DNA of 64,000 nt, from positions 2,406-66,405 of the forward strand of contig CALXMU010000001.1 of the NCBI GenBank assembly GCA_944389555.1. Direction: 5' to 3'. The position numbers were made by a program, and so were the translations under genes. Origin of the DNA: an uncultured Alphaproteobacteria bacterium (GTDB taxonomy: Bacteria; Pseudomonadota; Alphaproteobacteria; Rs-D84). Below, piece by piece: positions 3,760 through 17,358 of the stretch. Under the pieces are notes generated by a model. It saw nothing but the letters and a program-made list of their open reading frames with translations. It searched no databases and was not told the DNA's origin. The first letter of the stretch is position 1. Each line of letters opens with the position of its first letter.

Positions 3760-3889
3760 ATTCTCTCTTACCTGCAATTTTAACATAAAAATTACAAACA
3801 GAAAAGATAAAAATCAACAATATTACCCACAATAAACTTTAACCTTATTAAATATTGACAAAATATAATTTTAGTATAATATATTGAAT

Positions 3890-5665
3890 ATGATTATTGA
3901 AAAAGGCACGCTTTTATACGTATCCAAAGATGACCTTGATGAACAGGGGGTACTGCGCATACCAGAAGGAGTAACCGATATACTAGAAGGCGTAGGTTCT
4001 GCCATTCCTGGATTACGTAAAATATATTTTCCAGATTCTATGTCAAAGATAAACACACCGATATTCGAAGACAATTATAAGTTGGACAGCATTTACTTCG
4101 GCAAAAACATAAGTTTTATCAATTACGCTCCTTTCAAGCGCTGCCCAAATATAAAAACCATTCATATTCCAAACAAACGTTTTAGACTATTTCCATTATC
4201 TTTATTTGAAAATCTTAAAACCATAGTCGTAAACGATAAAAATCTTCAGATAGTCCAACACCTAAAAAAATATTCCGGTAAATATTATTACGAATCAAAC
4301 GTTAGAAACATCGGTAATATAAGAATATCAAAGGTGCAAAAAGTAGACTTAACCACGTTCTATGACCCAAGCAGTAAAGTTTGTCTGAACGTGGGAGATA
4401 AAAAACAATACCGCTTTATAGAAGATACGTTATCTGAATCTATAAAAGCTTGCCGAAAGTATTTAATGTTGCAGGAATTTGACTATTATATGTGGAAATA
4501 TAAAGCGACGCATAAATCTGATGAAAGAATTGACCAATATCAAACAATTTTACGAGACGCTATATCTAAATACATATCAAATAAAGATTTTACTTTTACC
4601 AAAGCAAATATTAGCAAAGTAAAACAGCATATACAGAAAATACCAATTTATATTAAATATATTAAAAAATATTCAGAGGAATATACATCTGCACAAAATT
4701 GCTTTGGGGAACTTTCCGACATAACAATTGATAACCTATTAAGAAAAATAAAACCTGTTAAACGCAGCGCTGTAAAACAATCTTGTACCAGATGGTTAAA
4801 AAAACATCCTGTTTCATCAGAAGAACTTACTTCCATCGCTTTGGCAGGTTATAAAAATCCTGGTGCTTTCCCATATTCTTGGATAAAAAAGATACCCGCA
4901 ACAAAACGAGGAAGTGCAACTAAACAGCTGCATAAATTATTTAAGCAAACAACAACTCAATTATATACGCCAGACAATAATATGCTGCAACCGTATATAA
5001 ATAAAGACATATTAAGAAATTTTGCAGAACAAATATCAAAAATAATTAAACAAGAAATTGAAATTCGTTATTTGGGTTCTGGAACATTTTCAAAAACATA
5101 CACTTTACAAATCCCGGGCGATAAAAAATACGTATGGAAAATATACCATTGCGATACTAGCGAGGCCTCAATAAATTCATATTATCATGACACCGAATTA
5201 CAGAATTCTTTTCTAATTGGCGGTAAAAAATATTTAGGTCAAAAGAAGTTTCGAAAAATATCTACAGCTGGCATCAGTAATCAACGCGGTCAAATATATT
5301 TGATATATCCTTATACAGAAGCGAAACCTATAAAAAACAAAATACACAGACCATTTGAAGCTTTGCGTAAATACTCTCTATTAGATAAAAACTGCGCTAA
5401 CTTCCTTGGCAACACAATAATAGACCTTGGTGCACTACGTATAAATTATAGCAACTTGGGTCAATCAAAGCATATATCTAAAATAACAAATACTATATTG
5501 TATCACTCTAAAAACGAACTTGTATACGTTCTAAATAATTACACGTCTACTCAGATAAATGACGCATTAAATTTCATAAACGAACGAATATCTATAAACC
5601 ACATTGAATTTAGCGCTATAAAAGCAAAAATAGAATTCTTGAAACAGAAAGCGAACATACGATAA
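3890..5665 (+). CDS. BspA-type leucine-rich-repeat protein fused to a minimal protein-kinase-like domain
   Basis: N-terminal IPEGVTDI / LRKIYFPDSMSKI / LDSIYFGKNISFI / CPNIKTIHIP repeats. C-terminal LGSGTFSKTY (Gly loop), YVWK, DKNCAN, IIDLG. Visibly AT-rich. Confidence 0.65.
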   Translation: MIIEKGTLLYVSKDDLDEQGVLRIPEGVTDILEGVGSAIPGLRKIYFPDSMSKINTPIFEDNYKLDSIYFGKNISFINYAPFKRCPNIKTIHIPNKRFRLFPLSLFENLKTIVVNDKNLQIVQHLKKYSGKYYYESNVRNIGNIRISKVQKVDLTTFYDPSSKVCLNVGDKKQYRFIEDTLSESIKACRKYLMLQEFDYYMWKYKATHKSDERIDQYQTILRDAISKYISNKDFTFTKANISKVKQHIQKIPIYIKYIKKYSEEYTSAQNCFGELSDITIDNLLRKIKPVKRSAVKQSCTRWLKKHPVSSEELTSIALAGYKNPGAFPYSWIKKIPATKRGSATKQLHKLFKQTTTQLYTPDNNMLQPYINKDILRNFAEQISKIIKQEIEIRYLGSGTFSKTYTLQIPGDKKYVWKIYHCDTSEASINSYYHDTELQNSFLIGGKKYLGQKKFRKISTAGISNQRGQIYLIYPYTEAKPIKNKIHRPFEALRKYSLLDKNCANFLGNTIIDLGALRINYSNLGQSKHISKITNTILYHSKNELVYVLNNYTSTQINDALNFINERISINHIEFSAIKAKIEFLKQKANIR

Positions 5666-5693: not shown

Positions 5694-8600
5694 TTATTCC
5701 ATACTTACGCTTAAAATGTCACCATATTGTCCTGCTTCATCGGTACCGATATAGCACTTTATATGCTTACCGACATTATTCATCCATTCTTCGTAAGCTG
5801 CCTTCTCAGCGGCACTTAAATTAGACGCTTGGATATCACGTGTTGCCTTATTTACTAACAACCCACCTGCAACACCCGTAACCACAGCCCCCAATGTTGG
5901 CGCCAACCACTGATTCTTCGCTTCAGATGAAGAATCTGTATTTTCACAAGCCGTCTTCAAAACGCCCAGTGCATTTATGGCCTGAGTTTTAGCGTTTCCT
6001 AACGCTTGAGTTTGAGATTCTGTCACAGATTTACCAGCGTTATTTACTGCGGTTTGTGCAGAAATCCATGCTGCCACCGAATTCTTCGCAGCGCTAATGG
6101 TGCTATCAGCCACCTTTTGTTTTTTGGCTTCTGATTCCAAAGATGTCATCCAACCAGAAACATTGCTTAAGCTTACTGAATTTGCATTACCAGTATTGAT
6201 CTCTTTTTCTATAGCAGTTATAAATTTAACCGCCTTATTTTCATTATTTTTATTTTCATTCAACCCGGTGATACCGCCAAATACATTTCCCTTCTGGATG
6301 CCGCTGCCTAAATACGCACCGCCAACTATACCGCCAACACTGCCCAATAATGTCGTCCAGAACGCGGTTCTATTCTGACTTTCGCGTTGAGATGCAGTTG
6401 CTTCGTCTACAGCCGCATTTGCCAATTCTTCCAATGTATCTGCTGGTATCCAGCTGCCGCAAGTAAAGGTATCGCCAACCGCAAAGTATGCCGTTGCCCA
6501 ATCCGCTCCGTTCATTGCTTTCTGAATATCCATGTCATCAGACTGTAACCTTACCTGAACGCTGCAGAAAGAACCATATAATTCATTACTTGGATTAAAG
6601 TCGCTACGTTCCAATCCCATTATACTATAATCGCTTGGTACGTTTTTGCCCTTTAACTTTACCCACATATATGTGCTGCCTGTATCATTAGCGCCCATTA
6701 TGCCGCCGCTATTTGCTGCCAAGCACATATTCTGTTCTTCTGTCAGTTTCTTGTTGTATATAGCCTGAGCCTCTTTTTCCAGGTCATATACCAAATCACG
6801 GAACAATGTAGATGCCGCCTGCGTCTGCAGATATGTAGAATATGAAGTGTATACAGGTGTATCGTATACCTTTCCAGTTGCATCTACTGAATAGCAAACG
6901 CCTTGGCTGCCATCAGATGCCGTACACAATGGATTACCGCTATCATCAGTTGCTTGAACTTGATTTAGCGTAGCCGTAACCTGAGTCGCTGCACCAGCAT
7001 CAATCCAACCTTCACGAACATTCGTCGCCGCACCCCATGAAGATGCACTATTTGAAGACTCTGCAATTTTCAATTTGTTCTGTTCAATGGCCAAATGTTC
7101 CTGACATACAGATGCATTTTTAACAGTATCCAAACACAACCCCAGAACAACAGTATAATCCAACACACCGCCCACTTTATTCATACTGGAATCAAACGAA
7201 GAATCGCCAGATTGGGTCAATGATGAATAAATATCAGTACGATTACGATAACAACTGCTGTAATCAGAACCGCACATAGAACGAACGCAACTTTTTGCGA
7301 CCGCTTCGCACTGCGTGCGCATCTGAGCGATTGCCGCATCGCTATAACTTGTCGCCAAAGAAGCGTTCAATGCGGCAATTACACCGATTGGGTCACCGCT
7401 ATTACTGCTGTACTTTGGGAACAAAGTATCAAATGCGTCATTATTTATATACGTATATGTATAACCACCAGTACTATCTGGATTTGCCGCGGCATACTTA
7501 CAATACGGATCTGTATTTACGATATCAGAACATCCCGTTTTGATTTCTTCATAACTTACAGCATTATTGATAGTCTTATCAATTGTACCAAACACTTGTG
7601 AGTAACATGCGGCACCACTGCCACCACCACAAACACGCATGGCACAAGATTTTATTGTGTTCATACAATTAGATTTCGCTTCGCTATCAAATTGTTCTAT
7701 CAATTCTGCAATACGAGCCTTCATTGAAGAATTCATACGAGACGCATATGCATCACCAAAAATATCTTCTTGATTCATTTCGTCGCTTAACTGAGAAGAC
7801 GAAGGCATTGCACCATTACCCAAGAATGTTGCATAGCAATACTTATTTGAACCAATTGTATTCAAACAAGCGTTTTTAATATAAGACTGAACTGCTGAGC
7901 TGCTATTGGTGTCAACAGACGCTGTTATAGTCGCCGCATCAACTTCTGTTCCACTGTTTATAGCGTCAACCAGATCAATTGTGCTAACGGTTGATTCTTC
8001 GTTACATTTATATGGATTTGTTGCGCAAGCATTCAAAATACACTGGTCAACGACCTTGTAACAGGTAGATACAGCATTTACCGCCGCCAAGGCTGCACCT
8101 TCACTAATCATTATACCAACGCGACTATCAGCTGCTGGATTGCCGGTTACAGTTGCGGAACCAAACAGTTCTATTTTACCCTCACTCTGGCAGCGTGCTA
8201 ATGTAGAATCACAGTATACCATTTGCTTTCTGAATTCTGTATTTGTCGTGCACAATTCAAAATCTGCACCGCATACATTGTCACGTTGTAAGCAAGTCGT
8301 ATAACGACGCACGCAGTCACCGGTACTATACATATTTGAAATTGCGGCCCCCGTAATCATCTGTCCCAATACACTGCCGTCTGTTGGATATGTATAATCC
8401 GTAACTTCGCCGTATGAATTTTTAGACGCAACATTTGATAAAGATGTAGTCGAAGAAGTTCCAAATAATGCGTTTACACCAGATGCAGAACATTGCGCCA
8501 ATGTACTTAAGCATAACGGCATTTTCCCATGGAATAAAACTTTCGTCGTACATTCTTCAAAATTAGCGCCACAGACATCAGTCCCCTTCAAGCAAGATGT

Positions 8601-8798
8601 ATACGCATCAATGCATTCTGCATTATCCAACAAATTTGATGTTGAAGATGAAGAATTTGAACTGTTTATATACGCAGTCATTGTCGGCAATCTAGACGAA
8701 GCCGTTCCGACAATGCTGGGACGCGCAGTCAAAGCATACGCCGCAGGTACAACGCCACAAACGGCTAAGAAACCAATTGATTTTTTCAGAAAGTTCAT
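5694..8798 (-). CDS. Large secreted Cys-rich repeat protein with C-terminal glycine-zipper hydrophobic helices
   Basis: GGAG RBS before ATG 8798 and a signal peptide (..PAAYA). Repeated C-x6-C-x4/6-C-x6/7-C units. Hydrophobic segments TLLGSVGGIVGGAYLG and TLGAVVTGVAGGLLV. Confidence 0.8.
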   Translation of the reverse strand: MNFLKKSIGFLAVCGVVPAAYALTARPSIVGTASSRLPTMTAYINSSNSSSSTSNLLDNAECIDAYTSCLKGTDVCGANFEECTTKVLFHGKMPLCLSTLAQCSASGVNALFGTSSTTSLSNVASKNSYGEVTDYTYPTDGSVLGQMITGAAISNMYSTGDCVRRYTTCLQRDNVCGADFELCTTNTEFRKQMVYCDSTLARCQSEGKIELFGSATVTGNPAADSRVGIMISEGAALAAVNAVSTCYKVVDQCILNACATNPYKCNEESTVSTIDLVDAINSGTEVDAATITASVDTNSSSAVQSYIKNACLNTIGSNKYCYATFLGNGAMPSSSQLSDEMNQEDIFGDAYASRMNSSMKARIAELIEQFDSEAKSNCMNTIKSCAMRVCGGGSGAACYSQVFGTIDKTINNAVSYEEIKTGCSDIVNTDPYCKYAAANPDSTGGYTYTYINNDAFDTLFPKYSSNSGDPIGVIAALNASLATSYSDAAIAQMRTQCEAVAKSCVRSMCGSDYSSCYRNRTDIYSSLTQSGDSSFDSSMNKVGGVLDYTVVLGLCLDTVKNASVCQEHLAIEQNKLKIAESSNSASSWGAATNVREGWIDAGAATQVTATLNQVQATDDSGNPLCTASDGSQGVCYSVDATGKVYDTPVYTSYSTYLQTQAASTLFRDLVYDLEKEAQAIYNKKLTEEQNMCLAANSGGIMGANDTGSTYMWVKLKGKNVPSDYSIMGLERSDFNPSNELYGSFCSVQVRLQSDDMDIQKAMNGADWATAYFAVGDTFTCGSWIPADTLEELANAAVDEATASQRESQNRTAFWTTLLGSVGGIVGGAYLGSGIQKGNVFGGITGLNENKNNENKAVKFITAIEKEINTGNANSVSLSNVSGWMTSLESEAKKQKVADSTISAAKNSVAAWISAQTAVNNAGKSVTESQTQALGNAKTQAINALGVLKTACENTDSSSEAKNQWLAPTLGAVVTGVAGGLLVNKATRDIQASNLSAAEKAAYEEWMNNVGKHIKCYIGTDEAGQYGDILSVSME

Positions 8799-8923
8799 TC
8801 GACTCACTCCATACTTATTACATTAAGTATAACATAAAATCAAAAACAGACAAAGGAAAAATACACGAATTTATAAACATTTGATAAAAAATTGGGGGAT
8901 AAAACCCCATTTATTTTTTTTCA

Positions 8924-9883
8924 TTACCCTATTTCATCTAATATTGCTTTTAAATCCGACATATCTTCTGGTAACCGAGCCTTAAAGTGCATCTTTTCAC
9001 CTGTAACAGGGTGCTCAAAATCCAGAACTTCCGCATGCAACATCTGACCGTCATGATTTTTCAAAAAATCTAATAAATCTTGATTCTTTACGCTTGCCAA
9101 TCTATTTGAAGCCCGCCCATATACAGGGTCACATAACACAGGAAAACCATGTGCCGATAAATGAACGCGAATTTGATGAGTACGCCCCGTTAATAAAGTA
9201 CATCTAAATTCCGAAACCCCGGCCCGAGTCCAAACATCTGCAACAGAAACTTTTGTATAAGCCGGTTTCCCGCCAGTCTTCACCATTGTCATCTTCTGAC
9301 GGTTTCGTGACGAACGTGCTATATTACCTGTAATATCCGCCCCATCCCAATTTGGTACCCCCCATACAAACGCAATATACTTTCGCGTCAAATCGTGCGC
9401 GGTAAAAATTTTTACCAAACCGCGAAATGCGGCATCAGATTTAGCAAATACCATTACGCCGCTGGTATCTTTATCCAATCTATGAACGACACCTGGACGC
9501 GTTTCACCACCCAGCGCAGATAAATTTGTGTGCCCTAAAATATTCTGCACAAGAGTACCCGTTTGATTACCTGCAGACGGATACATTACAACACCGCGCG
9601 GTTTGTTTATAACAATGATATCCTTATCCTCGTATAAAATATCTAAATCAAAATCTTTTGAAATATTTTCTGCGGCAACGTTGGTTTTTCTTTCCGGAAT
9701 AATAACCTCTATTTTATCTCCGCGACGCAATTTATAAGAAAACTTTTCCGCATTTCCATTTACCGTGACATTAAAACGCTGAATTTCACTACGAGAAAAA
9801 TCTGACATATTCACCGCCAGAAGTTTATCTAATCTACTGCCGGCCTCTGAATCAGACACAATAAAATCACGAACTTCTGACAT
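8924..9883 (-). CDS. rluD: 23S rRNA pseudouridine synthase RluD
   Basis: S4 domain (RLDKLL..SRSEIQ), NKPRG, VHRLDKDTSG, TGRTHQIRVH. Start taken at MSEVRDF. Confidence 0.92.
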   Translation of the reverse strand: MSEVRDFIVSDSEAGSRLDKLLAVNMSDFSRSEIQRFNVTVNGNAEKFSYKLRRGDKIEVIIPERKTNVAAENISKDFDLDILYEDKDIIVINKPRGVVMYPSAGNQTGTLVQNILGHTNLSALGGETRPGVVHRLDKDTSGVMVFAKSDAAFRGLVKIFTAHDLTRKYIAFVWGVPNWDGADITGNIARSSRNRQKMTMVKTGGKPAYTKVSVADVWTRAGVSEFRCTLLTGRTHQIRVHLSAHGFPVLCDPVYGRASNRLASVKNQDLLDFLKNHDGQMLHAEVLDFEHPVTGEKMHFKARLPEDMSDLKAILDEIG

Positions 9884-9890
9884 ACAAAAC

Positions 9891-10421
9891 CTATTTATAT
9901 TCAGACCAATCTGGACCTTTTTCACACTTTTCTAAATCTATGGTCAACTCGCGCCCAGAACTTTCAACTGGACAAATAAGTATTCCTGTACTTTCTGCTT
10001 GATCCGCTTCACGCGTAGCATTACGCCAAGTAAACTTTATTTCTTCTGGGGCATACAAACATGCAATTCTTAGTTCTCCCTCATGCTTATTATTAGGACC
10101 AACCCAAACACGCACCCCTTCACCTAAACCATAACAAGGGAACCCATCTAAATAATACAAAACTAAACCGCGACCAACTAACTTAGAAGACGGTATAAAT
10201 TTTCCGCGATATTCAGAATATCTTAATCCAGTTAAACCTTCCCAGTCAGTACTGGTAGAAAAAATACTTATGCGAGGTTGACTTGGCGTCGGGTCACGAC
10301 CAGGTTTTTGCCCCTGTGAATAACCGGGATTTTGAGTTGGTGTCGTGGCACCACCGTCTTCCGCGAACGCCCCCCCAAAAGATACACAAATAGCCACAAG
10401 AATGAATAAAAATCGTTTCAT
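9891..10421 (-). CDS. Secreted hypothetical protein
   Basis: Signal peptide MKRFLFILVAICVSFGGAFA; tightly packed in the operon. Confidence 0.65.
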   Translation of the reverse strand: MKRFLFILVAICVSFGGAFAEDGGATTPTQNPGYSQGQKPGRDPTPSQPRISIFSTSTDWEGLTGLRYSEYRGKFIPSSKLVGRGLVLYYLDGFPCYGLGEGVRVWVGPNNKHEGELRIACLYAPEEIKFTWRNATREADQAESTGILICPVESSGRELTIDLEKCEKGPDWSEYK

Positions 10422-10422
10422 T

Positions 10423-10932
10423 TTATTTCCTCTGGTTTTCTATTTCAACGGCAATCTTTTCAACATTTTCAGTAGGTACAGACAATTTATGGTTAAATTT
10501 TACATCATTGCCAGCATCTAACAATGTCGCAGACGGTAAAAAACGTTGACGCGCAACAACATTACCTTTTGCATCATATGAAACGATTACCAAACCAGGG
10601 GCACCATAAATTTGCTCTGACCTATTCACAACACGCCCAGAAACCACGAAAAATTTTCGCCCATTTTCATCGGTATCTATTTGCACATCACTAATTTCTG
10701 CAATAACGGGTTTCTCACGAATTTCTTTGGCCTTATATTGATATAAAACAGCAACTGCAAAAACCAATGCCGCCAACAAAGCACATAATGCAGCTATAAA
10801 AACCAAGATAGAATTACGACGAGGCGGCCGCTGTACAGTCCATGTATGACCGCAAACCGCGCATTTCACAGGTCCATTAGGAGCCATATCTAACGAATAT
10901 TCTGTTTTACAAAAATCACATACTGTTTTCAT
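10423..10932 (-). CDS. Zinc-ribbon + TM + DUF3426-like protein (ZitP-like)
   Basis: CDFC-x-CAVCGHTW zinc ribbon, single TM, C-terminal VVSGRVVNRS..P.L....YD..G beta domain. Confidence 0.75.
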   Translation of the reverse strand: MKTVCDFCKTEYSLDMAPNGPVKCAVCGHTWTVQRPPRRNSILVFIAALCALLAALVFAVAVLYQYKAKEIREKPVIAEISDVQIDTDENGRKFFVVSGRVVNRSEQIYGAPGLVIVSYDAKGNVVARQRFLPSATLLDAGNDVKFNHKLSVPTENVEKIAVEIENQRK

Positions 10933-10952
10933 ATTACGATTTATACCACATT

Positions 10953-12275
10953 TTATTCCAAATTCAACTGACTATATTTTGCTCTTACGGTTCTTTGTAT
11001 TTCATTTATAGCATTCATATAATCTGATGCTGTCGCATTCTTATTTGATACGACAGTTTTAAATATACGTTCTGTTTCTGTATTTGTGGTTTTTTCTTCG
11101 TACACTGCCATCTGAGACATACGATTTAATTCTTGTAACGAAACGTCCATAAAACTAGCAACACCAGTTGCAGCATCCCAATAAAAGTTTGAATTAATTG
11201 AATCTTCTATTCTATCGTAAACGACTAAACGAGGCGTAATAGACCCGGCAAAACCAACCGTAACAAACATCGCGTCAATATTACCAGCATTCATATCTAA
11301 AGATTTATTTATATTTAATACAGCGGGGCCATCATCAGAATTAATGGATAAACTTGGTAACGTCATATTCGTCACCCATAAATCACCGGTTGTGAAACTA
11401 GTAAATTTCCCCACATCTGCTAATGATAAATTTTTGGTAACTTCCATTGTTCTTGAATCCGAAGACAAAGTTCCAGCAACAGTTGCATTTTGAACTTCAA
11501 AAACCTTATCCAAGGTAGTTCTGTTTTGAAAAACTACGTCTGTAGAAACAGTTTCCCCCAAGATTAAAGTCTCTGCAAATTCAGTATTAGCAGCGTTAAA
11601 AAATGTCGCATTTATTATATCATGCCCCCCCAGATTTAAACCCGACAGCATCGTCGCATCAGATTCACTATCCGTTGGAACTCTATATAAGTACAAAGCA
11701 TTATCACGATTAACCGAAGTTGTTTCAACTAATCCATCAGTTACATTTAACCCCAAATCTATCGCATCAGTACGCCACGCACCGAAAGTACCATATGCAC
11801 GATTACCTTCGATAAACCCCATAGAATCACCGCCCATTGCGACTATTTCACGCGTTCTCATAGGTGTTATTTCTTCCGATGAATATACTATTATCCCCTG
11901 AAGAGTGGCACGATCTTCTATATCGCTAGACTTCAAAACTCGTAATTGATATTGACCAGAAGCATCTGCCACCAAATCCGGATTTAAACCATATTCTTCC
12001 AAATCGGATAAATTTATACGAGTTATATTACGTCCAACAGTTGTAAGTAATTCTTCGCGATGATCAACTATATATCTTTCCAAGGAAGATTGTATGTCTT
12101 CCATTTGTTCGGTAATAGCCTTGTTTTCTGCCCGCTGAACAACGCTTTGCTGATATTTGAAAATGAAAGGCATTATTATTGCGGCCAATGCAACACTCAT
12201 CAATAATTCTACTAACATAGAACCTTGCTGACTGACATCTTCTGCGTTAAAAATTTTATTCAAACGCCTCTTCAT
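10953..12275 (-). CDS. PilV-like (shufflon N-domain) type IV minor pilin/adhesin, copy 3
   Basis: QQG|SMLVE prepilin site; MGFIEGNRAYGTFGAW and YLYRVP..M..LNLGGHDIINA motifs; ATGA overlap with the upstream gene. Confidence 0.75.
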   Translation of the reverse strand: MKRRLNKIFNAEDVSQQGSMLVELLMSVALAAIIMPFIFKYQQSVVQRAENKAITEQMEDIQSSLERYIVDHREELLTTVGRNITRINLSDLEEYGLNPDLVADASGQYQLRVLKSSDIEDRATLQGIIVYSSEEITPMRTREIVAMGGDSMGFIEGNRAYGTFGAWRTDAIDLGLNVTDGLVETTSVNRDNALYLYRVPTDSESDATMLSGLNLGGHDIINATFFNAANTEFAETLILGETVSTDVVFQNRTTLDKVFEVQNATVAGTLSSDSRTMEVTKNLSLADVGKFTSFTTGDLWVTNMTLPSLSINSDDGPAVLNINKSLDMNAGNIDAMFVTVGFAGSITPRLVVYDRIEDSINSNFYWDAATGVASFMDVSLQELNRMSQMAVYEEKTTNTETERIFKTVVSNKNATASDYMNAINEIQRTVRAKYSQLNLE

Positions 12276-13474
12276 TGCGCATCCTTTGGCATCACAAATT
12301 CCCAATCTTCAGACATAATAGCAGAAAACTCTTTATCTGAAGGCATCGCCGGAACAGAACTTCGTGATAAATATAATTCATAAAACATCGGCGGTGTTAA
12401 AGAAGGGAAAACCCAATTACCTATTTTTAACGGCGCAGTAGTTGACATCAATAATTCGCCCGATATTGTAAGACCGAAATTTTCATAGAACACAATTTCT
12501 TCTGTTGATATGAATGAAGTATACACGGTATGAGCAACTATACCAGAGAAACCGCTTACTGTACGAGAATCATCAGATTTCAGCGTTAAAACGTTACCTA
12601 TGTTTATAGAATTTAGAATAGTCGCTCTATCCGTAATAATCCGACCCGACGTGGTATACTTATTACCATTCAAACTATCTGCATATATATTTCTAAAACC
12701 AGAAATGTCACCGGTAACGCGCATAGAATTTAACCACGCATTTTCACCGTCTAAATTAGCACCAGATGAAAAATACAACGTATTTGCGACTAAATTATTA
12801 GTTTCTATGAACTGCCCAGAAACGTTTTTTATCTTTGCAGACTTTGCGCTTATTCCCCCGACATCATAGACTCGATTATTATTCATGTTCAAATCGCGTA
12901 ACATCACATTAAGTTTTTCTTCGCCCGTCTCCGTACGATGTAGGTAACGCGTCTTATCATCGCCGTTTAAAGCACCTGATATTCTATATATTAAATTCCC
13001 CTCTTTGAAATCTGGCGCAGATACAGCCCACGTCCGACCATACGCAATTCCGTCGCTACCGACAACCGCCGCATCAGAACCTATATGCCTAGCAATCTTA
13101 GACGTCTGTAAATCCGTACCATCTATATCAAACGCCAGATACACATCTGTTATTGTTGCGCCATTTACAACGTACTTATCTATGAAACCTGATTCTGGGA
13201 TTTCTGATATTTCATCTAGTTCTTCGTCTGATAGTTTTATCTGCGCAACATTTGGCCAGTCGTTCTGGTTCAAACGAACGAAATTCAAAACAGGATTACG
13301 CAATTCTATAATCTTGTTTGCCGCCGCTATATTACGCAAACTATCATTTGTATCGGAAATTTGGCTATATAATAAAGGCGTAGCCATGGCGACGATCGCC
13401 ATTGCTAGTAAAACTTCTAGCATACTGGCACCACGTTCACAATCCGTAAAAAATCTATCTTTACATGCAGTCAC
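12272..13474 (-). CDS. PilV-like type IV minor pilin/adhesin, copy 2
   Basis: ERG|ASMLE prepilin site; IARHIG..AYGRTW and YLHR...LNVMLRDLNMNNN motifs. Confidence 0.75.
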   Translation of the reverse strand: MTACKDRFFTDCERGASMLEVLLAMAIVAMATPLLYSQISDTNDSLRNIAAANKIIELRNPVLNFVRLNQNDWPNVAQIKLSDEELDEISEIPESGFIDKYVVNGATITDVYLAFDIDGTDLQTSKIARHIGSDAAVVGSDGIAYGRTWAVSAPDFKEGNLIYRISGALNGDDKTRYLHRTETGEEKLNVMLRDLNMNNNRVYDVGGISAKSAKIKNVSGQFIETNNLVANTLYFSSGANLDGENAWLNSMRVTGDISGFRNIYADSLNGNKYTTSGRIITDRATILNSINIGNVLTLKSDDSRTVSGFSGIVAHTVYTSFISTEEIVFYENFGLTISGELLMSTTAPLKIGNWVFPSLTPPMFYELYLSRSSVPAMPSDKEFSAIMSEDWEFVMPKDAQ

Positions 13475-14816
13475 TGCGCCCTTCCAATAAACACTGTTTT
13501 ATATTTATTCTTTGTTCTAACCGCCGCCAGAAATAGTACTGACAAACGATGTACTGTGATAAAGACTTTGCATTATAACGACCATCTAATTTAGATATAA
13601 CATCTCTACAACTTTGAATTTTTCCGTCATCCGAAGACGGATTACTGATTATAGCAAAACCATCATTACTAATTGTGCTTAATAAAACGTCGGGTAAAAT
13701 AGAAGTACCAGCAGGTCTAATATCTAAAACCACCGCACCTGTTTCACCCTGATTCAAAGCATCTGAAGTCTGATCCCGCATGGTTATATTTGATGTAATA
13801 ACTCTATTCGCCTCAATACCGCTACGAGAACTGTACTCTAAATCATCCGGGTCAATGTAAACGTCTTGCCCACGCGAAGCATCTATATAAGAATCTATAT
13901 CTAAACGTTCTACACTAAAGTTTATATTTTGGCTTATGACATCACCGTTTACTTTCCAATCCAGCGGTCCGGAAAAACTATTTCTTCCGGCAGTCATTGC
14001 GAAGTCATATACGGCCGCCACATTTGACGTAAAATTACCGGTATCTCCGAACGCAGAAATTGTTCTAGCAGAAACATCACCTGCATATAAAGAACCCCGA
14101 GTCAAAGATAAGGCTGATTCACCAAGTGCGCTTTGAAACACTGCCCGTTCTGCCATCATAACGTCAATTGTGTTACGAACTTTTCTGCCGTCTTCAAGCC
14201 CATATATAGACAACATATTAAATTGACCGCTATCAAATTCGCCCCGTCGCGCAAATATTTCACCACCGTTATTAAAAGAAAAACCACCCATATCTAAATT
14301 AGTAAGAAAAGCATTATTATCTAAATTCTGTTCGTTTCTACGTACTACATCTGAATAAGCAGCGTCCAAAGCCAAACCAACCATAATAGTATCGCCGGAA
14401 ACAGACGCATAATACCCTATACGACGAGCCAATTCTGCCAGTTCCACTGGCGACAAATTCCCTCCTGTCAGTTGCAAATACGCACTAACTGCCATAGGCG
14501 TTTTATTTATAACTAACGAAATATCTTGCCCAAGCGCTGTCCGCGGGATAAAACCAAGCGGCAAACCATATGATTCTAATAAATCGGCAAACGTATCACC
14601 AGAAACTACAGTTGTATTATAAGGCAAATCATTTGCACGTTCACGAACGAAAATTCTTGCTGCAGTTTGAGCAACCTCAACTTTTTGCGTAGAAGCATAC
14701 ATCTGAGAATCAACGTCACGAGCAGACAACCGCTGTGCAAAGAACGGTATGAACGAAAATATCAGCGTCAAGGCAAGTAACGCCTGTAATAAAAAATTTC
14801 CGTTTTGTTGGCGCAA
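13461..14816 (-). CDS. PilV-like type IV minor pilin/adhesin, copy 1 (Q instead of E at +5)
   Basis: AGGAGG RBS then TTG at 14816, reading MRQQNG|NFLLQALLAL. Contains L.SYGLP.GF, LARRIG and FLTNLDMGG motifs. Confidence 0.7.
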   Translation of the reverse strand: MRQQNGNFLLQALLALTLIFSFIPFFAQRLSARDVDSQMYASTQKVEVAQTAARIFVRERANDLPYNTTVVSGDTFADLLESYGLPLGFIPRTALGQDISLVINKTPMAVSAYLQLTGGNLSPVELAELARRIGYYASVSGDTIMVGLALDAAYSDVVRRNEQNLDNNAFLTNLDMGGFSFNNGGEIFARRGEFDSGQFNMLSIYGLEDGRKVRNTIDVMMAERAVFQSALGESALSLTRGSLYAGDVSARTISAFGDTGNFTSNVAAVYDFAMTAGRNSFSGPLDWKVNGDVISQNINFSVERLDIDSYIDASRGQDVYIDPDDLEYSSRSGIEANRVITSNITMRDQTSDALNQGETGAVVLDIRPAGTSILPDVLLSTISNDGFAIISNPSSDDGKIQSCRDVISKLDGRYNAKSLSQYIVCQYYFWRRLEQRINIKQCLLEGRSDCM

Positions 14817-14960
14817 ATTAAACTTCCCTCCTACACGGGGAATATTAGCAAGTGAAAAAAAATATTGCAATCGCTTTTAAGATTCATTATTATTTAACAT
14901 GTTGAATAAGCGATAGTGATAAAACACTATTAAACATTTCCTGAAACAAAAAAAACGAAT

Positions 14961-15269
14961 ATGCAAAACAAAAAAAATCAATCGTCTGTCGGGCTGATGA
15001 TTCAGCGCTGTCACAAATGGCGTCAAAAAAGAAAGCAATATATGGACCAAGCACGTCAAACAACCGATGAAATTGAACGTGAACGTTTAATGCAAGCGGC
15101 TGAGCACTATGGTCGCATAGTTAATGCTGAACAAGGTAAAATAGACTCTTCTCGTGATCCAAAGGATAAAACGCCTGTAATTGAAGAAAACACTGACGTT
15201 GTTGACGCAATGGACTCTTCTGACGACGAAGATACTACTTTCCCAGATTTCATCACGAATGAAAAATAA
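14961..15269 (+). CDS. DUF4167-like protein
   Basis: QYMDQAR...ERLMQAAEHYGRIV resembles the alphaproteobacterial DUF4167 core. Confidence 0.65.
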   Translation: MQNKKNQSSVGLMIQRCHKWRQKRKQYMDQARQTTDEIERERLMQAAEHYGRIVNAEQGKIDSSRDPKDKTPVIEENTDVVDAMDSSDDEDTTFPDFITNEK

Positions 15270-15350
15270 AAAACTAGGTCGTAAAATCATACTTTACTGC
15301 TTGAAATTTTACTGTGTTTTGCTATGCTTGCCCCAAAGGAAGTTTAAGCA

Positions 15351-16886
15351 ATGGATAGCAGTTACACAGTTTTAGCACGAAAATATCGCAGTCAAGATTT
15401 CAAATCCCTTATCGGTCAAGATGTATTAGTCAAAACATTGACAACGGCAATCAATACGGGTCGTATTGCACATGCTTACATTTTTACCGGTATTCGTGGT
15501 ACGGGTAAAACAAGTACTGCTCGTATTTTAGCGAAGGCGCTTAATTGTTTATCGTCCGATGGACCAACTGCATCGCCATGCGGTGTATGTGAAAATTGTC
15601 GTGCCATTGCGGCGGGGCAACATATTGACGTCTTAGAAATTGACGCCGCATCACATACAGGCGTTGATAATATGCGCGACATATTAGATGCTGCCCAATA
15701 TCGTCCGACAAACGGTCGTTATAAAGTTTATATAATTGACGAAGTCCATATGCTTTCTACCAGCGCATTTAATGCGTTACTAAAAACGTTAGAAGAACCA
15801 CCAGCACACGTAATTTTTATATTGGCGACAACAGAAATTCGTAAAGTTCCAGTAACCATCTTATCTCGTTGCCAACGTTTCGATTTAGTTCGCGTACCAG
15901 TTGAAACATTAAAGCAACATTTTGCTTGGATTGCAGGGCAAGAAAAAATAGAACTAAGCGACGCAGCAAACGAACTTCTTGCACGTGCAGCGGACGGTTC
16001 TGTACGTGATGGACTATCTTTATTAGACCAGGCAATTGCGCAAACAGGTGGTCATGTTGACGAACAGGCTGTTTTAGACATGCTGAAACGTGCCGACCGT
16101 GGCGTTGTCGTAAACTTTATGGAAACTTTATTATCAGGCGACACATCCGCAGCGTTAAGTAAAGCAGATGAAATTTATACTAACGGTGCGGATTTAGCAA
16201 TGTTGCTAAACGATATGATGGAATGGACACATTGGGCAACGCGTATGCACCCAGCAATTCACGCAGGGGAAGTTACTAATTCCCCGTATACGGCAGACCA
16301 GCGCGAACAAATTAAAAAGATTGATGCAAACGTATCACTAAATACTTTATCAAGAATATGGCAAGTTATGGTTGCTGCGGTACCAGAAATGCAAGCGTCC
16401 GGGAATCAAAAGCAATGTTTTGATATGCTAATTGTACGTTTAATGCACATTGCCGATATGCCATCTGTAACAGACATATTAAAAAATCAGCGTTCTGCGC
16501 AACCGCAAACAAAAAATCCAGAACCCAAAGAGCAAACGGTTCAAAAATCTAAATTGTCTGTTGAAACAGCAAATGATTTAGCAACGGCGCTACAAAGTTC
16601 AAAGGAAATATTATTATATTCTTATTACACAAGTAACATAGAAGTAATAGAAATATCAAATAATACTATAAAATATTTTGATAGACGTGGTGATGCAGAC
16701 TTTGCGCATAAAATGGCGACTTGGTTAAACGAAAAAACAGGTCATATTTGGACTTTGGAGCGCATTCAAGAATCTCAGAACACACATACCATCACTGAAC
16801 AAAAGAAAGAAGAATTAGAATCAGATCCAATGGTTGCTAGTGCTATGGATTTATTCGCCGACGCAGAAATTGTGGGTGTAAAATAA
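15351..16886 (+). CDS. dnaX: DNA polymerase III subunit gamma/tau
   Basis: LARKYR, GIRGTGKTS, IIDEVHMLS, LKTLEEPP, SRCQRF. Confidence 0.97.
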   Translation: MDSSYTVLARKYRSQDFKSLIGQDVLVKTLTTAINTGRIAHAYIFTGIRGTGKTSTARILAKALNCLSSDGPTASPCGVCENCRAIAAGQHIDVLEIDAASHTGVDNMRDILDAAQYRPTNGRYKVYIIDEVHMLSTSAFNALLKTLEEPPAHVIFILATTEIRKVPVTILSRCQRFDLVRVPVETLKQHFAWIAGQEKIELSDAANELLARAADGSVRDGLSLLDQAIAQTGGHVDEQAVLDMLKRADRGVVVNFMETLLSGDTSAALSKADEIYTNGADLAMLLNDMMEWTHWATRMHPAIHAGEVTNSPYTADQREQIKKIDANVSLNTLSRIWQVMVAAVPEMQASGNQKQCFDMLIVRLMHIADMPSVTDILKNQRSAQPQTKNPEPKEQTVQKSKLSVETANDLATALQSSKEILLYSYYTSNIEVIEISNNTIKYFDRRGDADFAHKMATWLNEKTGHIWTLERIQESQNTHTITEQKKEELESDPMVASAMDLFADAEIVGVK

Positions 16887-16899
16887 TACGGAGAGAAAA

Positions 16900-17358
16900 A
16901 TGATTCAAGAACGTGGTGCATCAATGATTGAAATTATCGGAGTACTTGCCATTGCCGGTCTTATGAGTGCCGCCGCAATAGGAATGTATAACGTAATAAG
17001 AAATAATCAAACGCGCAAAATAGCATCCGTTGAAATAGAACAAATTGCAAAAAAAACTAACTTATTGATGGGCATGCGCGGTGATTACACTGGTCTATCG
17101 GTGGATTACTTAGTATCGGCGGGCGCATTAAATAATACAAATGCACCGATTGGCGGAAACGATTGGTCTGTTACAGCGACAAACGGTGGAAAGGGTTATT
17201 CAATAAACCTAACGCAGTTAACTGAAGGCGAATGCCAATATTTTACATCGGCTCTTCCTAAATGGGCGACGCGTGTAACAGTAAATGGGATAGAAGTAAC
17301 TTCTTCATCTAACTGCTTTTCTACAGATACAAATCAAATTTCTTTCATAGTAGAATAA
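16900..17358 (+). CDS. Type IV prepilin, PilS-like major pilin candidate
   Basis: MIQERG|ASMIEIIGVLAIAG; DYTGL, NAPIGG and a C-terminal Cys pair; 152 aa. Confidence 0.8.
   Translation: MIQERGASMIEIIGVLAIAGLMSAAAIGMYNVIRNNQTRKIASVEIEQIAKKTNLLMGMRGDYTGLSVDYLVSAGALNNTNAPIGGNDWSVTATNGGKGYSINLTQLTEGECQYFTSALPKWATRVTVNGIEVTSSSNCFSTDTNQISFIVE

Follow-up and report, generated by a model that had tools for sequence, protein, structure and literature searches.

Three fixed, overlapping genes for remote PilV-like prepilins and a predicted dispersed type IVb pilus in the reduced-genome order Rs-D84

The window analysed here, 64,000 nucleotides from an uncultured Alphaproteobacteria bacterium of the order Rs-D84 (assembly GCA_944389555.1, contig CALXMU010000001.1; G000:C1:2406-66405), carries on its minus strand three consecutive genes for large prepilin-like proteins, which we name C, B and A in the order of their transcription (Table 1). 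The source genome comprises 882,323 bases in 5 contigs with ~38% G+C and is rated 100% complete. An earlier note on this DNA had placed here three overlapping genes for PilV-like tip adhesins, chromosomal and without a shufflon, and its coordinates and overlaps agree with our reading of open reading frames (ORFs) and starts. The longest ORFs span 13461-14870, 12272-13474 and 10953-12305. For gene C the TTG at 14816, with a GGAGG 8-9 nt upstream, is most likely the start, while an alternative TTG at 14870 also opens the frame; for gene A we chose the ATG at 12275 over the TTG at 12305 because its homologues are 436-442 aa long. Genes C and B overlap by 14 nt (GTG of B at 13474, TAA of C at 13461-13463), and B and A overlap in an ATGA, with the ATG of A at 12275-12273 and the TGA of B at 12274-12272. 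Judged by profile comparison, A, B and C are remote members of the PilV/Shufflon_N superfamily.

Table 1. Positions of the prepilin genes and of the genes around them. Coordinates are those of the window unless a contig is named (C1); an arrow marks the predicted cleavage site.
Feature	Coordinates	Strand	Description
Gene C	13461-14816	-	451 aa; leader MRQQNG; mature N-terminus NFLLQ (Gln +5)
Gene B	12272-13474	-	400 aa; GTG start; mature N-terminus ASMLE (Glu +5)
Gene A	10953-12275	-	440 aa; ATG start; mature N-terminus SMLVE (Glu +5)
Small pilin, candidate major pilin	16900-17358	+	152 aa; MIQERG↓ASMIE; 2 kb from the trio, after dnaX
Second small pilin	C1:243058-243537		159 aa; from the prepilin motif scan
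ZitP-like gene	10423-10932	-	169 aa; MJ0042-type zinc ribbon, one transmembrane helix, DUF3426-like C-terminal domain
Secreted protein	9891-10421	-	176 aa; signal peptide, P/Q-rich stretch; syntenic in 24/24 loci
rluD	8924-9925	-	downstream of the 176-aa gene; presumed end of the trio's unit
1037-aa protein	5694-8807	-	signal peptide; Cys-rich, with recurring C-x-x-C-like contexts; hydrophobic, glycine-rich segments towards the C-terminus

Each of the three proteins begins with a class III (prepilin) signal, as had been claimed: the motifs are G↓NFLLQ in C, G↓ASMLE in B and G↓SMLVE in A, each followed by ~20 hydrophobic residues. We aligned orthologues drawn from 24 related loci, which come from animal-gut metagenome-assembled genomes titled Candidatus Enterousia or uncultured Alphaproteobacteria. 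The glycine at -1 and the residue at +5 are invariant in all three alignments, with Gln at +5 in C (23 sequences) and Glu in B (24) and A (25), so that the Q in the first gene and the E in the other two hold as fixed columns within the family. Four cysteines near the C-terminus of C (C404, C426, C443 and C451) are likewise invariant in its 23 sequences.

Family models say little about these proteins. A Pfam scan gave nothing for A and B, and for C only a match to Imm10 (E 0.0026, below cut-off), which we set aside as chance. With Pfam at E ≤ 10 and NCBIfam at E ≤ 1 the only further matches were to the N-terminal helix (GspI/XpsI/ComGE and N_methyl, E 0.014-0.46; for B, NCBIfam GspI/XpsI at E 0.014-0.017), and the Shufflon_N model run against the whole genome in six frames had no match at E ≤ 10. 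The kinship became visible with a profile of B, which collected 239 proteins at E ≤ 1e-3, 60 of them at E ≤ 1e-30, from 1.84 billion representative proteins. A Pfam scan of 67 mostly full-length matches identified seven with a Shufflon_N domain, six of them above the gathering score. These seven matched the B profile with library-wide E-values of 8e-7 to 1e-5, and their best-matched stretches fall on positions 137-260 of B, beyond the generic helix. Using hhalign, we compared each gene's alignment with an alignment of the seven proteins and obtained 99.2% for A (E 6.8e-20, 215 columns), 99.3% for B (E 1.6e-20, 222 columns) and 97.0% for C (E 1e-10, 199 columns). With the first 45 residues cut on both sides the values were 97.9% (E 5.6e-13) for A, 97.5% (E 6.1e-12) for B and 85.4% (E 5.8e-6) for C; on these sequence comparisons gene C appears as the weakest of the three links.

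The profile alignment brings out a shared motif of the PilV constant region, Y-L-[YH]-R...L-N-x-M...L-[ND]-[LM]-G-G-x-x-I-x-N, which reads ALYLYRVP...ATMLSGLNLGGHDIINA in A, YLHRTETGEEKLNVMLRDLNMNNN in B and VVRRNE...FLTNLDMGGFSFNN in C. The constant-region motifs named in the earlier note thus stand when the genes are aligned to Shufflon_N proteins by profile, but not when they are compared with the Pfam model itself. In the ESM Atlas, Shufflon_N clusters were the nearest named ones for A (0.95, 11/30) and C (0.94, 12/30), which we take as leads only. A sequence search of the PDB with the B profile and with a profile of the Shufflon_N set returned generic pilin helices (geopilin, PilA) or chance matches, and no solved PilV. 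Within the trio, hhalign without the helix gave 92.9% for A-B, 68% for B-C and 23% for A-C, so that its members lie farther from each other than from Shufflon_N. By BLASTP, A and B match at E 3e-4 over ~200 N-terminal residues, and C has no significant match to either. The description of the three genes as paralogues therefore applies in the sense of remote kinship, but not of close paralogy.

The components of a pilus assembly machine are encoded elsewhere in the genome. An assembly-type T2SSE ATPase (545 aa, E 1.5e-64) followed by a T2SSF platform protein (357 aa, E 2.6e-29) lies at C1:117-120 kb, and directly upstream of the ATPase are PilO (PAP_PilO PF06864, 31.6 bits, cut-off 26.7) and PilP (TIGR03021, 37.7 bits, cut-off 34.65). 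At C1:228.7-231.3 kb a gene with a TcpQ domain (PilL-like; PF10671, 65.1 bits, cut-off 27) precedes a secretin whose best NCBIfam model is PilN (TIGR02520, E 1.9e-73, 247.8 bits; cut-off 287.65). Over 95-99% of its length this secretin shares 25-28% identity with plasmid PilN-family secretins, with matches in 2,935 plasmid records. A short Peptidase_A24 protein, a prepilin peptidase of the PilU type, is on contig 2 (E 1.3e-16). A PilN-like secretin and PilQ-, PilR- and PilU-type homologues, whose presence had been proposed as a check on the pilus assignment, are accordingly all in the genome; the ATPase, platform and peptidase families are generic to type IV filaments and not specific to R64. 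No ATPase dedicated to retraction was seen; the genome has one other T2SSE match, a short VirB11-type protein on C4. That the trio might be pseudopilins of a type II secretion system (T2SS) was considered and rejected as the main reading, given the type IVb accessory genes PilO, PilP and TcpQ.

A prepilin motif scan of all ORFs in the genome returned five proteins, namely the trio and two small pilins. The cleavage motif of the 152-aa pilin is of the same type as that of B, and BLASTP gives it a weak match (E 0.023) to a plasmid PilS-family pilin. It stands beside dnaX in 22/24 related loci; L008 and L026 are without the whole left flank, and L028 has the flank and no match. On a Thalassospira plasmid the corresponding genes follow each other as peptidase, TcpQ, PilN, PilO2, a hypothetical gene, ATPase, platform, PilS pilin and a single, weak Shufflon_N protein. 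This plasmid shows the compact ancestral order, and the Enterousia set is that operon in at least 5 pieces. As far as sequence can tell, the genome thus appears to encode a complete, dispersed type IVb pilus of the R64 type.

We then turned to predicted structures. The AlphaFold2 model of A, built from 25 sequences, was poor, with a predicted local distance difference test (pLDDT) of 50. The model of B, from 56 diverse sequences, had a mean pLDDT of 72.4; its residues 10-160 (pLDDT 84-92) form a long helix packed on a sheet, and residues 170-392 (pLDDT 45-76) include strands at 220-290. We aligned the B model with VIA-align to 48,161 chains, where Z < 8 is middling by the tool's own grading. 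Residues 7-158 matched TcpA (Z 6.2), the pilin of enterotoxigenic Escherichia coli (ETEC; Z 6.1), a putative PilM (Z 6.6) and GspI (Z 5.1-5.2), and residues 209-320 matched beta-helices, among them a tapirin-type adhesin (Z 7.9, root-mean-square deviation (rmsd) 2.6 Å over 106 residues) and bactofilin (Z 6.2). Foldseek of the B model against the PDB had no match at E ≤ 0.001, with TcpB as a weak row (E 0.32). The models suggest, with moderate confidence, that B consists of a type IVb pilin domain followed by a beta-helix-like C-terminal module. The beta-rich shaft that the earlier note ascribed to each gene finds this moderate support for B only, through the strands at 220-290. Foldseek of the B model against BFVD viral structures gave no support for kinship to phage tail fibres, its sole row at E 2.5e-4 having a TM-score of 0.14 and an rmsd of 20 Å.

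With these results a deflationary explanation can be weighed, that the pilin likeness is superficial and that the trio are signal-anchored surface proteins unrelated to the pilus genes. It would account for the failure of every curated model to match the trio and for the distance of the assembly genes, which are 100-220 kb away or on another contig. It does not sit well with the invariance of G-1 and of position +5, with a cleavage motif shared with the two small pilins, with Shufflon_N profile matches that survive removal of the helix, or with an N-terminal domain of B that is confidently modelled and finds its best matches in type IVb pilins, PilM and GspI. We regard this explanation as very improbable.

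Enterousia has been placed in the order Rs-D84, with genomes mostly below 1 Mb, and members of the order are reported to lack respiration and standard transporters and to have an incomplete glycolysis, for which a partner-dependent life has been suggested (PMC12306168). Across Rs-D84, genome sizes run from 0.5 to 1.1 Mb. We examined the distribution of the pilus genes in 101 genomes of the order, each at least 90% complete. B-like genes are present in 101/101 and a PilN-like secretin in 100/101. Gene C is detected in 75/101 (E ≤ 1e-5): it occurs in 71/71 other genomes of its own family, and in other families in 3/29 genomes, with N-terminal matches only. To see what stands in the place of the trio outside the family, we sampled four genomes (G303, G246, G301 and G302), one per family, chosen among those with matches. 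All four (4/4) carry three tandem large prepilin genes (438-602 aa), and all twelve genes match the profile of the Shufflon_N set at E 1e-9 to 1e-25; those of G303 have C, B and A as best matches in that order. The trio itself is syntenic in 24/24 related loci and, counting its own family, tandem trios occur in 5/5 sampled families, so that the triplet, whose presence in related genomes had been proposed as a check, is indeed a shared feature.

We built a tree from the first 240 residues (44 rows); many of its branches are long, which makes placement unsure. Each of A, B and C is recovered as a single clade (100%). The first genes of G303 and G246 join C (86-87%), the second genes of all four genomes join B (88/76, weak), and G301 and G302 pair gene by gene (97-98%). 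The canonical Shufflon_N proteins form a clade of their own (100/99) and the Enterousia genes fall outside it. The tandem trios together with this positional grouping indicate that the triplication probably predates the families of the order.

Nothing resembling a shufflon was found at the locus. There are no sfx-like repeats in 9000-16000, only short, weak inverted repeats (≤26 nt, 73-93%), and no recombinase beside the trio, the four tyrosine recombinases of the genome being at C1:102 kb, at C1:172 kb and on C3. As far as the contigs reach, 24/24 loci share the arrangement DUF4167-dnaX-pilin-ompA / C-B-A-zinc ribbon-176 aa-rluD-1037 aa. The trio is thus chromosomal and fixed, as had been claimed. 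A mobile island was also considered and ruled out, since the trio sits amid housekeeping genes, with identical synteny in 24/24 loci and no integrase nearby. We estimated the ratio of nonsynonymous to synonymous divergence (dN/dS) against five close loci of the genus and obtained 0.05-0.07 for C, 0.06-0.10 for B and 0.07-0.10 for A, next to 0.07-0.09 for rluD and 0.01-0.04 for dnaX, values to be read with saturated dS and four pairs without a value. The trio is under strong purifying selection.

Chromosomal Shufflon_N genes also occur elsewhere in the Alphaproteobacteria, in 18/301 sampled genomes (13 above cut-off; the tally includes genome G040). One genome of another alphaproteobacterial family, G185, has three tandem canonical Shufflon_N genes of 516, 478 and 900 aa, all with Glu5 (L041:8740-14414), which adjoin TamB/BamA-type genes; the 900-aa protein also carries He_PIG/Big_9 Ig domains, and two of the three genes are sister copies in the tree. 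This trio looks like an independent chromosomal multiplication of PilV.

Such an expansion illustrates an alternative for Enterousia, in which C, B and A would be independent, alternative adhesins, incorporated singly or as homotrimers on different pili or along the shaft, and would together do the job of a shufflon. The PilV C-termini of IncI plasmids are described as alternative adhesins that recognise different receptors (PMC9045228), a homotrimer is reported for CofB (PMC7248040), the G185 trio, all E5 and with two sister copies, looks like a recent adhesin expansion, and all three genes have E5 in 3/4 of the other families sampled. The Enterousia trio behaves differently. There are exactly three genes in the same order in 5/5 sampled families of 0.5-1.1 Mb genomes; their pilin domains diverge more from each other than from Shufflon_N, whereas for redundant adhesins one would expect the tips, and not the pilin domains, to differ; purifying selection is uniform, with no variable end; and Glu5 is lost from C throughout the family. 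A fixed, ordered and coupled trio in very small genomes fits a complex with three positions better than redundant adhesins, and we consider the latter unlikely.

The reading that we prefer, and that we hold slightly likelier to be right than wrong, is that the trio are three anciently diverged PilV-type minor pilins of a chromosomal type IVb pilus of the R64 thin-pilus type, forming a tip complex and serving adhesion. Its parts differ in strength. Membership of the trio in a type IVb pilus is highly probable; adhesion as the main function is somewhat probable; and a joint tip complex, the heterotrimer proposed in the earlier note, has close to an even chance, with indirect support from the retention of exactly three tandem genes, from their purifying selection and from the tip trimers reported for the single minor pilin of other type IVb pili. 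The cell probably uses the pilus to hold on to a partner or a host surface.

The course of events that we infer begins with the joint expression of C, B and A as a single, translationally coupled operon. Prepilin peptidase would cleave each protein after the conserved Gly, and the hydrophobic N-terminal helix would anchor it. Each would comprise a type IVb pilin domain with the PilV-type constant-region motif and, beyond it, a beta-rich C-terminal module. The three would assemble first, perhaps in a 1:1:1 ratio, as a priming complex, and this would come to lie at the pilus tip. In the presumed order C-B-A, C would be uppermost, because without Glu5 it could only be the first subunit, and B and A would dock beneath it through their Glu5. 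The small pilin would then polymerise below the trio, and the three fixed C-terminal modules would act as adhesive surfaces, holding another cell or a host surface through a putative receptor. If the pilus retracts, the Glu5-bearing A or B could trigger retraction in the manner of TcpB. With its natural Q5, C suits the uppermost place, and GspK, too, is without Glu5.

Published work on related tips provides the precedents. In the toxin-coregulated pilus (TCP), a type IVb pilus without a retraction ATPase, TcpB is reported to need no Glu5 to start the pilus as its first subunit, while entry into the growing pilus and the triggering of retraction depend on Glu5, an E5Q variant being impaired (PMC5207764). 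Tip trimers are reported for CofB and TcpB, and a GspIJK tip capped by GspK (PMC7248040). PilV is described as an adhesin that selects recipient cells (PMC9045228).

Several observations weigh against a PilV-type tip complex for adhesion. The Shufflon_N model (PF04917), with which the earlier note expected the genes to be recognisable, had no match to A, B or C at E ≤ 10, the link being visible only in profile-profile and iterative profile searches, and tblastn of B against 72,556 plasmids had no match at E ≤ 0.01; since both miss the trio, PilV membership rests on profile methods and on small alignments (effective number of sequences, Neff, ~2). Here, as in each of the 101 genomes of the order, the secretin scores below the NCBIfam cut-off for PilN, and the Pfam PilS model (PF08805) did not match the small pilins. 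Because the Shufflon_N and PilN models miss this branch, its genes are left hypothetical in the public records examined: gene A has 971 homologues at E ≤ 0.01, and among the 120 listed none is named or assigned to a Pfam domain. For the C-terminal halves the models reach low to moderate confidence, and no structural match attains Z 8. Conservation is even along each protein, unlike that of shufflon PilV with its variable adhesin ends. Position 5 of the first gene is also less telling across the order than within the family. It is Gln in G302 and in the trio's own family but Glu in G303, G246 and G301, and E5 in 3/4 other families means that Q5 is permitted and not required. For Q5 as the mark of a tip-most subunit, the role that the earlier note gave it, there are its invariance in C within the family and its presence in G302; the E5 in the majority of the other families sampled speaks against it as a deep marker.

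The last such observation concerns function. ComEC (699-aa frame, G000:C4:50129-50944) and DprA (G000:C1:233563-234183) are both kept in this 882-kb genome, the latter ~2.3 kb downstream of the secretin, and this makes DNA uptake an alternative function. The machine might serve mainly for DNA uptake, in competence or nucleotide scavenging, or for protein export of the TcpF/CofJ kind, with a trio tip that binds DNA or cargo. For such a role one may also cite the secretion of TcpF, reported to be driven by TCP retraction (PMC5207764), the standard transporters reported as missing in the order (PMC12306168) and the ESM Atlas, whose automatic names for the nearest unnamed clusters read 'Type II secretion system protein family'. 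Most bacteria, non-competent ones among them, have ComEC and DprA, which matched in 11/14 and 12/14 of our control genomes; no T2SS-specific parts were seen in the genome, and its accessory genes (PilO, PilP, TcpQ) are type IVb; the closest characterised relatives, PilV, are adhesins, and the beta-helix of B matches adhesin-type domains. We consider a primary role in uptake or export quite unlikely.

Returning to the tip complex, comparison with known systems indicates what is familiar in it and what is not. Like PilV of the IncI1/IncI2 plasmids (R64, TP114), the Enterousia proteins have a prepilin N-terminus, a length of ~400-470 aa and a pilin domain with the constant-region motif, and they go with a machine of the PilN/O/P/Q/R/S/U type. 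Plasmid PilV, in contrast, is one gene with invertible 3' cassettes, where Enterousia has three fixed genes with no sfx repeats and no Rci next door, and these are core chromosomal genes of a whole order and not part of a conjugative element. CofB of the ETEC CFA/III (colonization factor antigen III) pilus and TcpB of the Vibrio cholerae TCP are likewise large minor pilins with beta-rich C-terminal parts, and are described as initiating assembly at the tip (PMC7248040). Their systems are reported to lack a retraction ATPase (PMC5207764), and here too only one assembly ATPase was found. They differ in having one gene, against three here, of which one is naturally without Glu5, and we saw no sequence match between them and the trio. 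The GspK-GspI-GspJ complex, as well as PilVWX/FimU of type IVa pili, offers a hetero-oligomeric priming complex with a large capping subunit (PMC7248040). GspIJK belong to another family, whereas the members of the trio are all large and interrelated through Shufflon_N and their machine is type IVb.

Sets of type IVb genes from PilL to PilV outside IncI plasmids are known from PAPI-1 of Pseudomonas aeruginosa and SPI-7 of Salmonella Typhi. These are compact operons on mobile islands with one pilV, whereas the Enterousia genes are dispersed, vertically inherited and triplicated. The pilV2 gene of PAPI-1 is not known to have a shufflon. The PAPI-1 pilus is reported to recognise the lipopolysaccharide of the recipient (PMC5297154). 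Tapirins of Caldicellulosiruptor share with the B model a beta-helix adhesin domain (4wa0, Z 7.9; 6n2b, Z 5.6), with a pLDDT of 55-76 in that region of the model, 12% identity and nearly as good matches to other beta-solenoids (bactofilin, LpxD-type); at the level of the model, the match would denote a common fold class only.

PilV, the type IVb pilus and minor-pilin tips are already known. What is new is a branch that has diverged beyond the reach of curated models, that has three fixed copies and no shufflon, that is dispersed around the chromosome, and that is core to an order of reduced-genome gut bacteria. Our literature search, whose coverage falls short of one earlier Enterousia paper, found no description of a pilus in Rs-D84; in the available text of the report on the order's genomes, type IV pili are mentioned for another lineage (UBA9783) only (PMC12306168). 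The pilus set is a concrete and testable candidate for the organelle by which members of the order may attach to a partner. Further, the trio offers a natural case of a type IVb tip pilin kept as three diverged, co-inherited copies, which bears on tip priming and on the role of Glu5.

The genes downstream of the trio may bear on how it is placed. The ZitP-like gene starts 20 nt past the stop of A on the same strand, is syntenic in 24/24 loci and is probably co-transcribed with the trio. Its protein scores 26.4 bits with DUF3426 (cut-off 27.7) and 22 bits with Zn_ribbon_4 in Pfam, and 21.8 bits with the NCBIfam MJ0042 model (cut-off 20.9). With an N-terminal zinc ribbon, one transmembrane helix and a DUF3426-like domain it has the architecture of Caulobacter crescentus ZitP, of which we infer it, by this likeness, to be a candidate orthologue. 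The Caulobacter protein is longer (311 aa against 169 aa) and serves a Tad/Cpa pilus via CpaM, and the DUF3426 of the protein here is just under the Pfam cut-off. In Caulobacter the periplasmic DUF3426 is reported to be required for pilus biogenesis (PMC5182063). By analogy, the ZitP-like protein may connect the trio with the cell pole or with the pilus machine.

A bolder version of the tip complex can be drawn. A single type IVb tip minor pilin, homotrimeric in systems of the CofB/TcpB type, would have been triplicated in the ancestor of Rs-D84, and its copies would have become the non-interchangeable positions C-B-A of an obligate heterotrimeric tip, the top one being free to lose Glu5; the ZitP-like factor would place the complex at the pole, for docking to a partner. 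We regard this full scheme as doubtful.

The 176-aa secreted protein matches no Pfam or NCBIfam family; its gene overlaps the start of rluD by 35 nt at its 3' end (9891-9925) and may belong to the trio's transcription unit. A terminator-like hairpin 3' of rluD, at 8909-8893, is a mere hint of the end of the unit, and a promoter scan was uninformative, with 27 promoter-like sites against 20.5 ± 4.6 expected. The gene of the 1037-aa protein, which has no Pfam or NCBIfam family either, is just downstream of rluD in 22/24 related loci with 39-83% identity, and hence diverges faster than its neighbours. Farther on, the stretch of lowest GC in the first 30 kb (0.33 against ~0.40) includes a plus-strand gene (3884-5665) whose 593-aa product has BspA-type leucine-rich repeats (LRR_5, E 2.5e-8) and is a candidate for a role at the surface or in host interaction.

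Two minor observations concern the surroundings of pilin genes elsewhere. On contig 1, C1:251328-253230 (L044:13329-15231) holds four tandem paralogues of a ~150-aa lipoprotein, of which the last three hardly differ. Beyond them come a Cys-rich 443-aa secreted protein and a 153-aa membrane protein that no tool named and that may be of the VirB2/TrbC kind. Finally, pilin genes lie near RluD-family genes three times, a recurrence that may be chance: in the unit of the trio, at the second small pilin, which is followed by a second PseudoU_synth_2 gene (L044:5563-6531), and at the G185 trio, where a PseudoU_synth_2+S4 gene comes ~3 kb later (L041:17683-18654).

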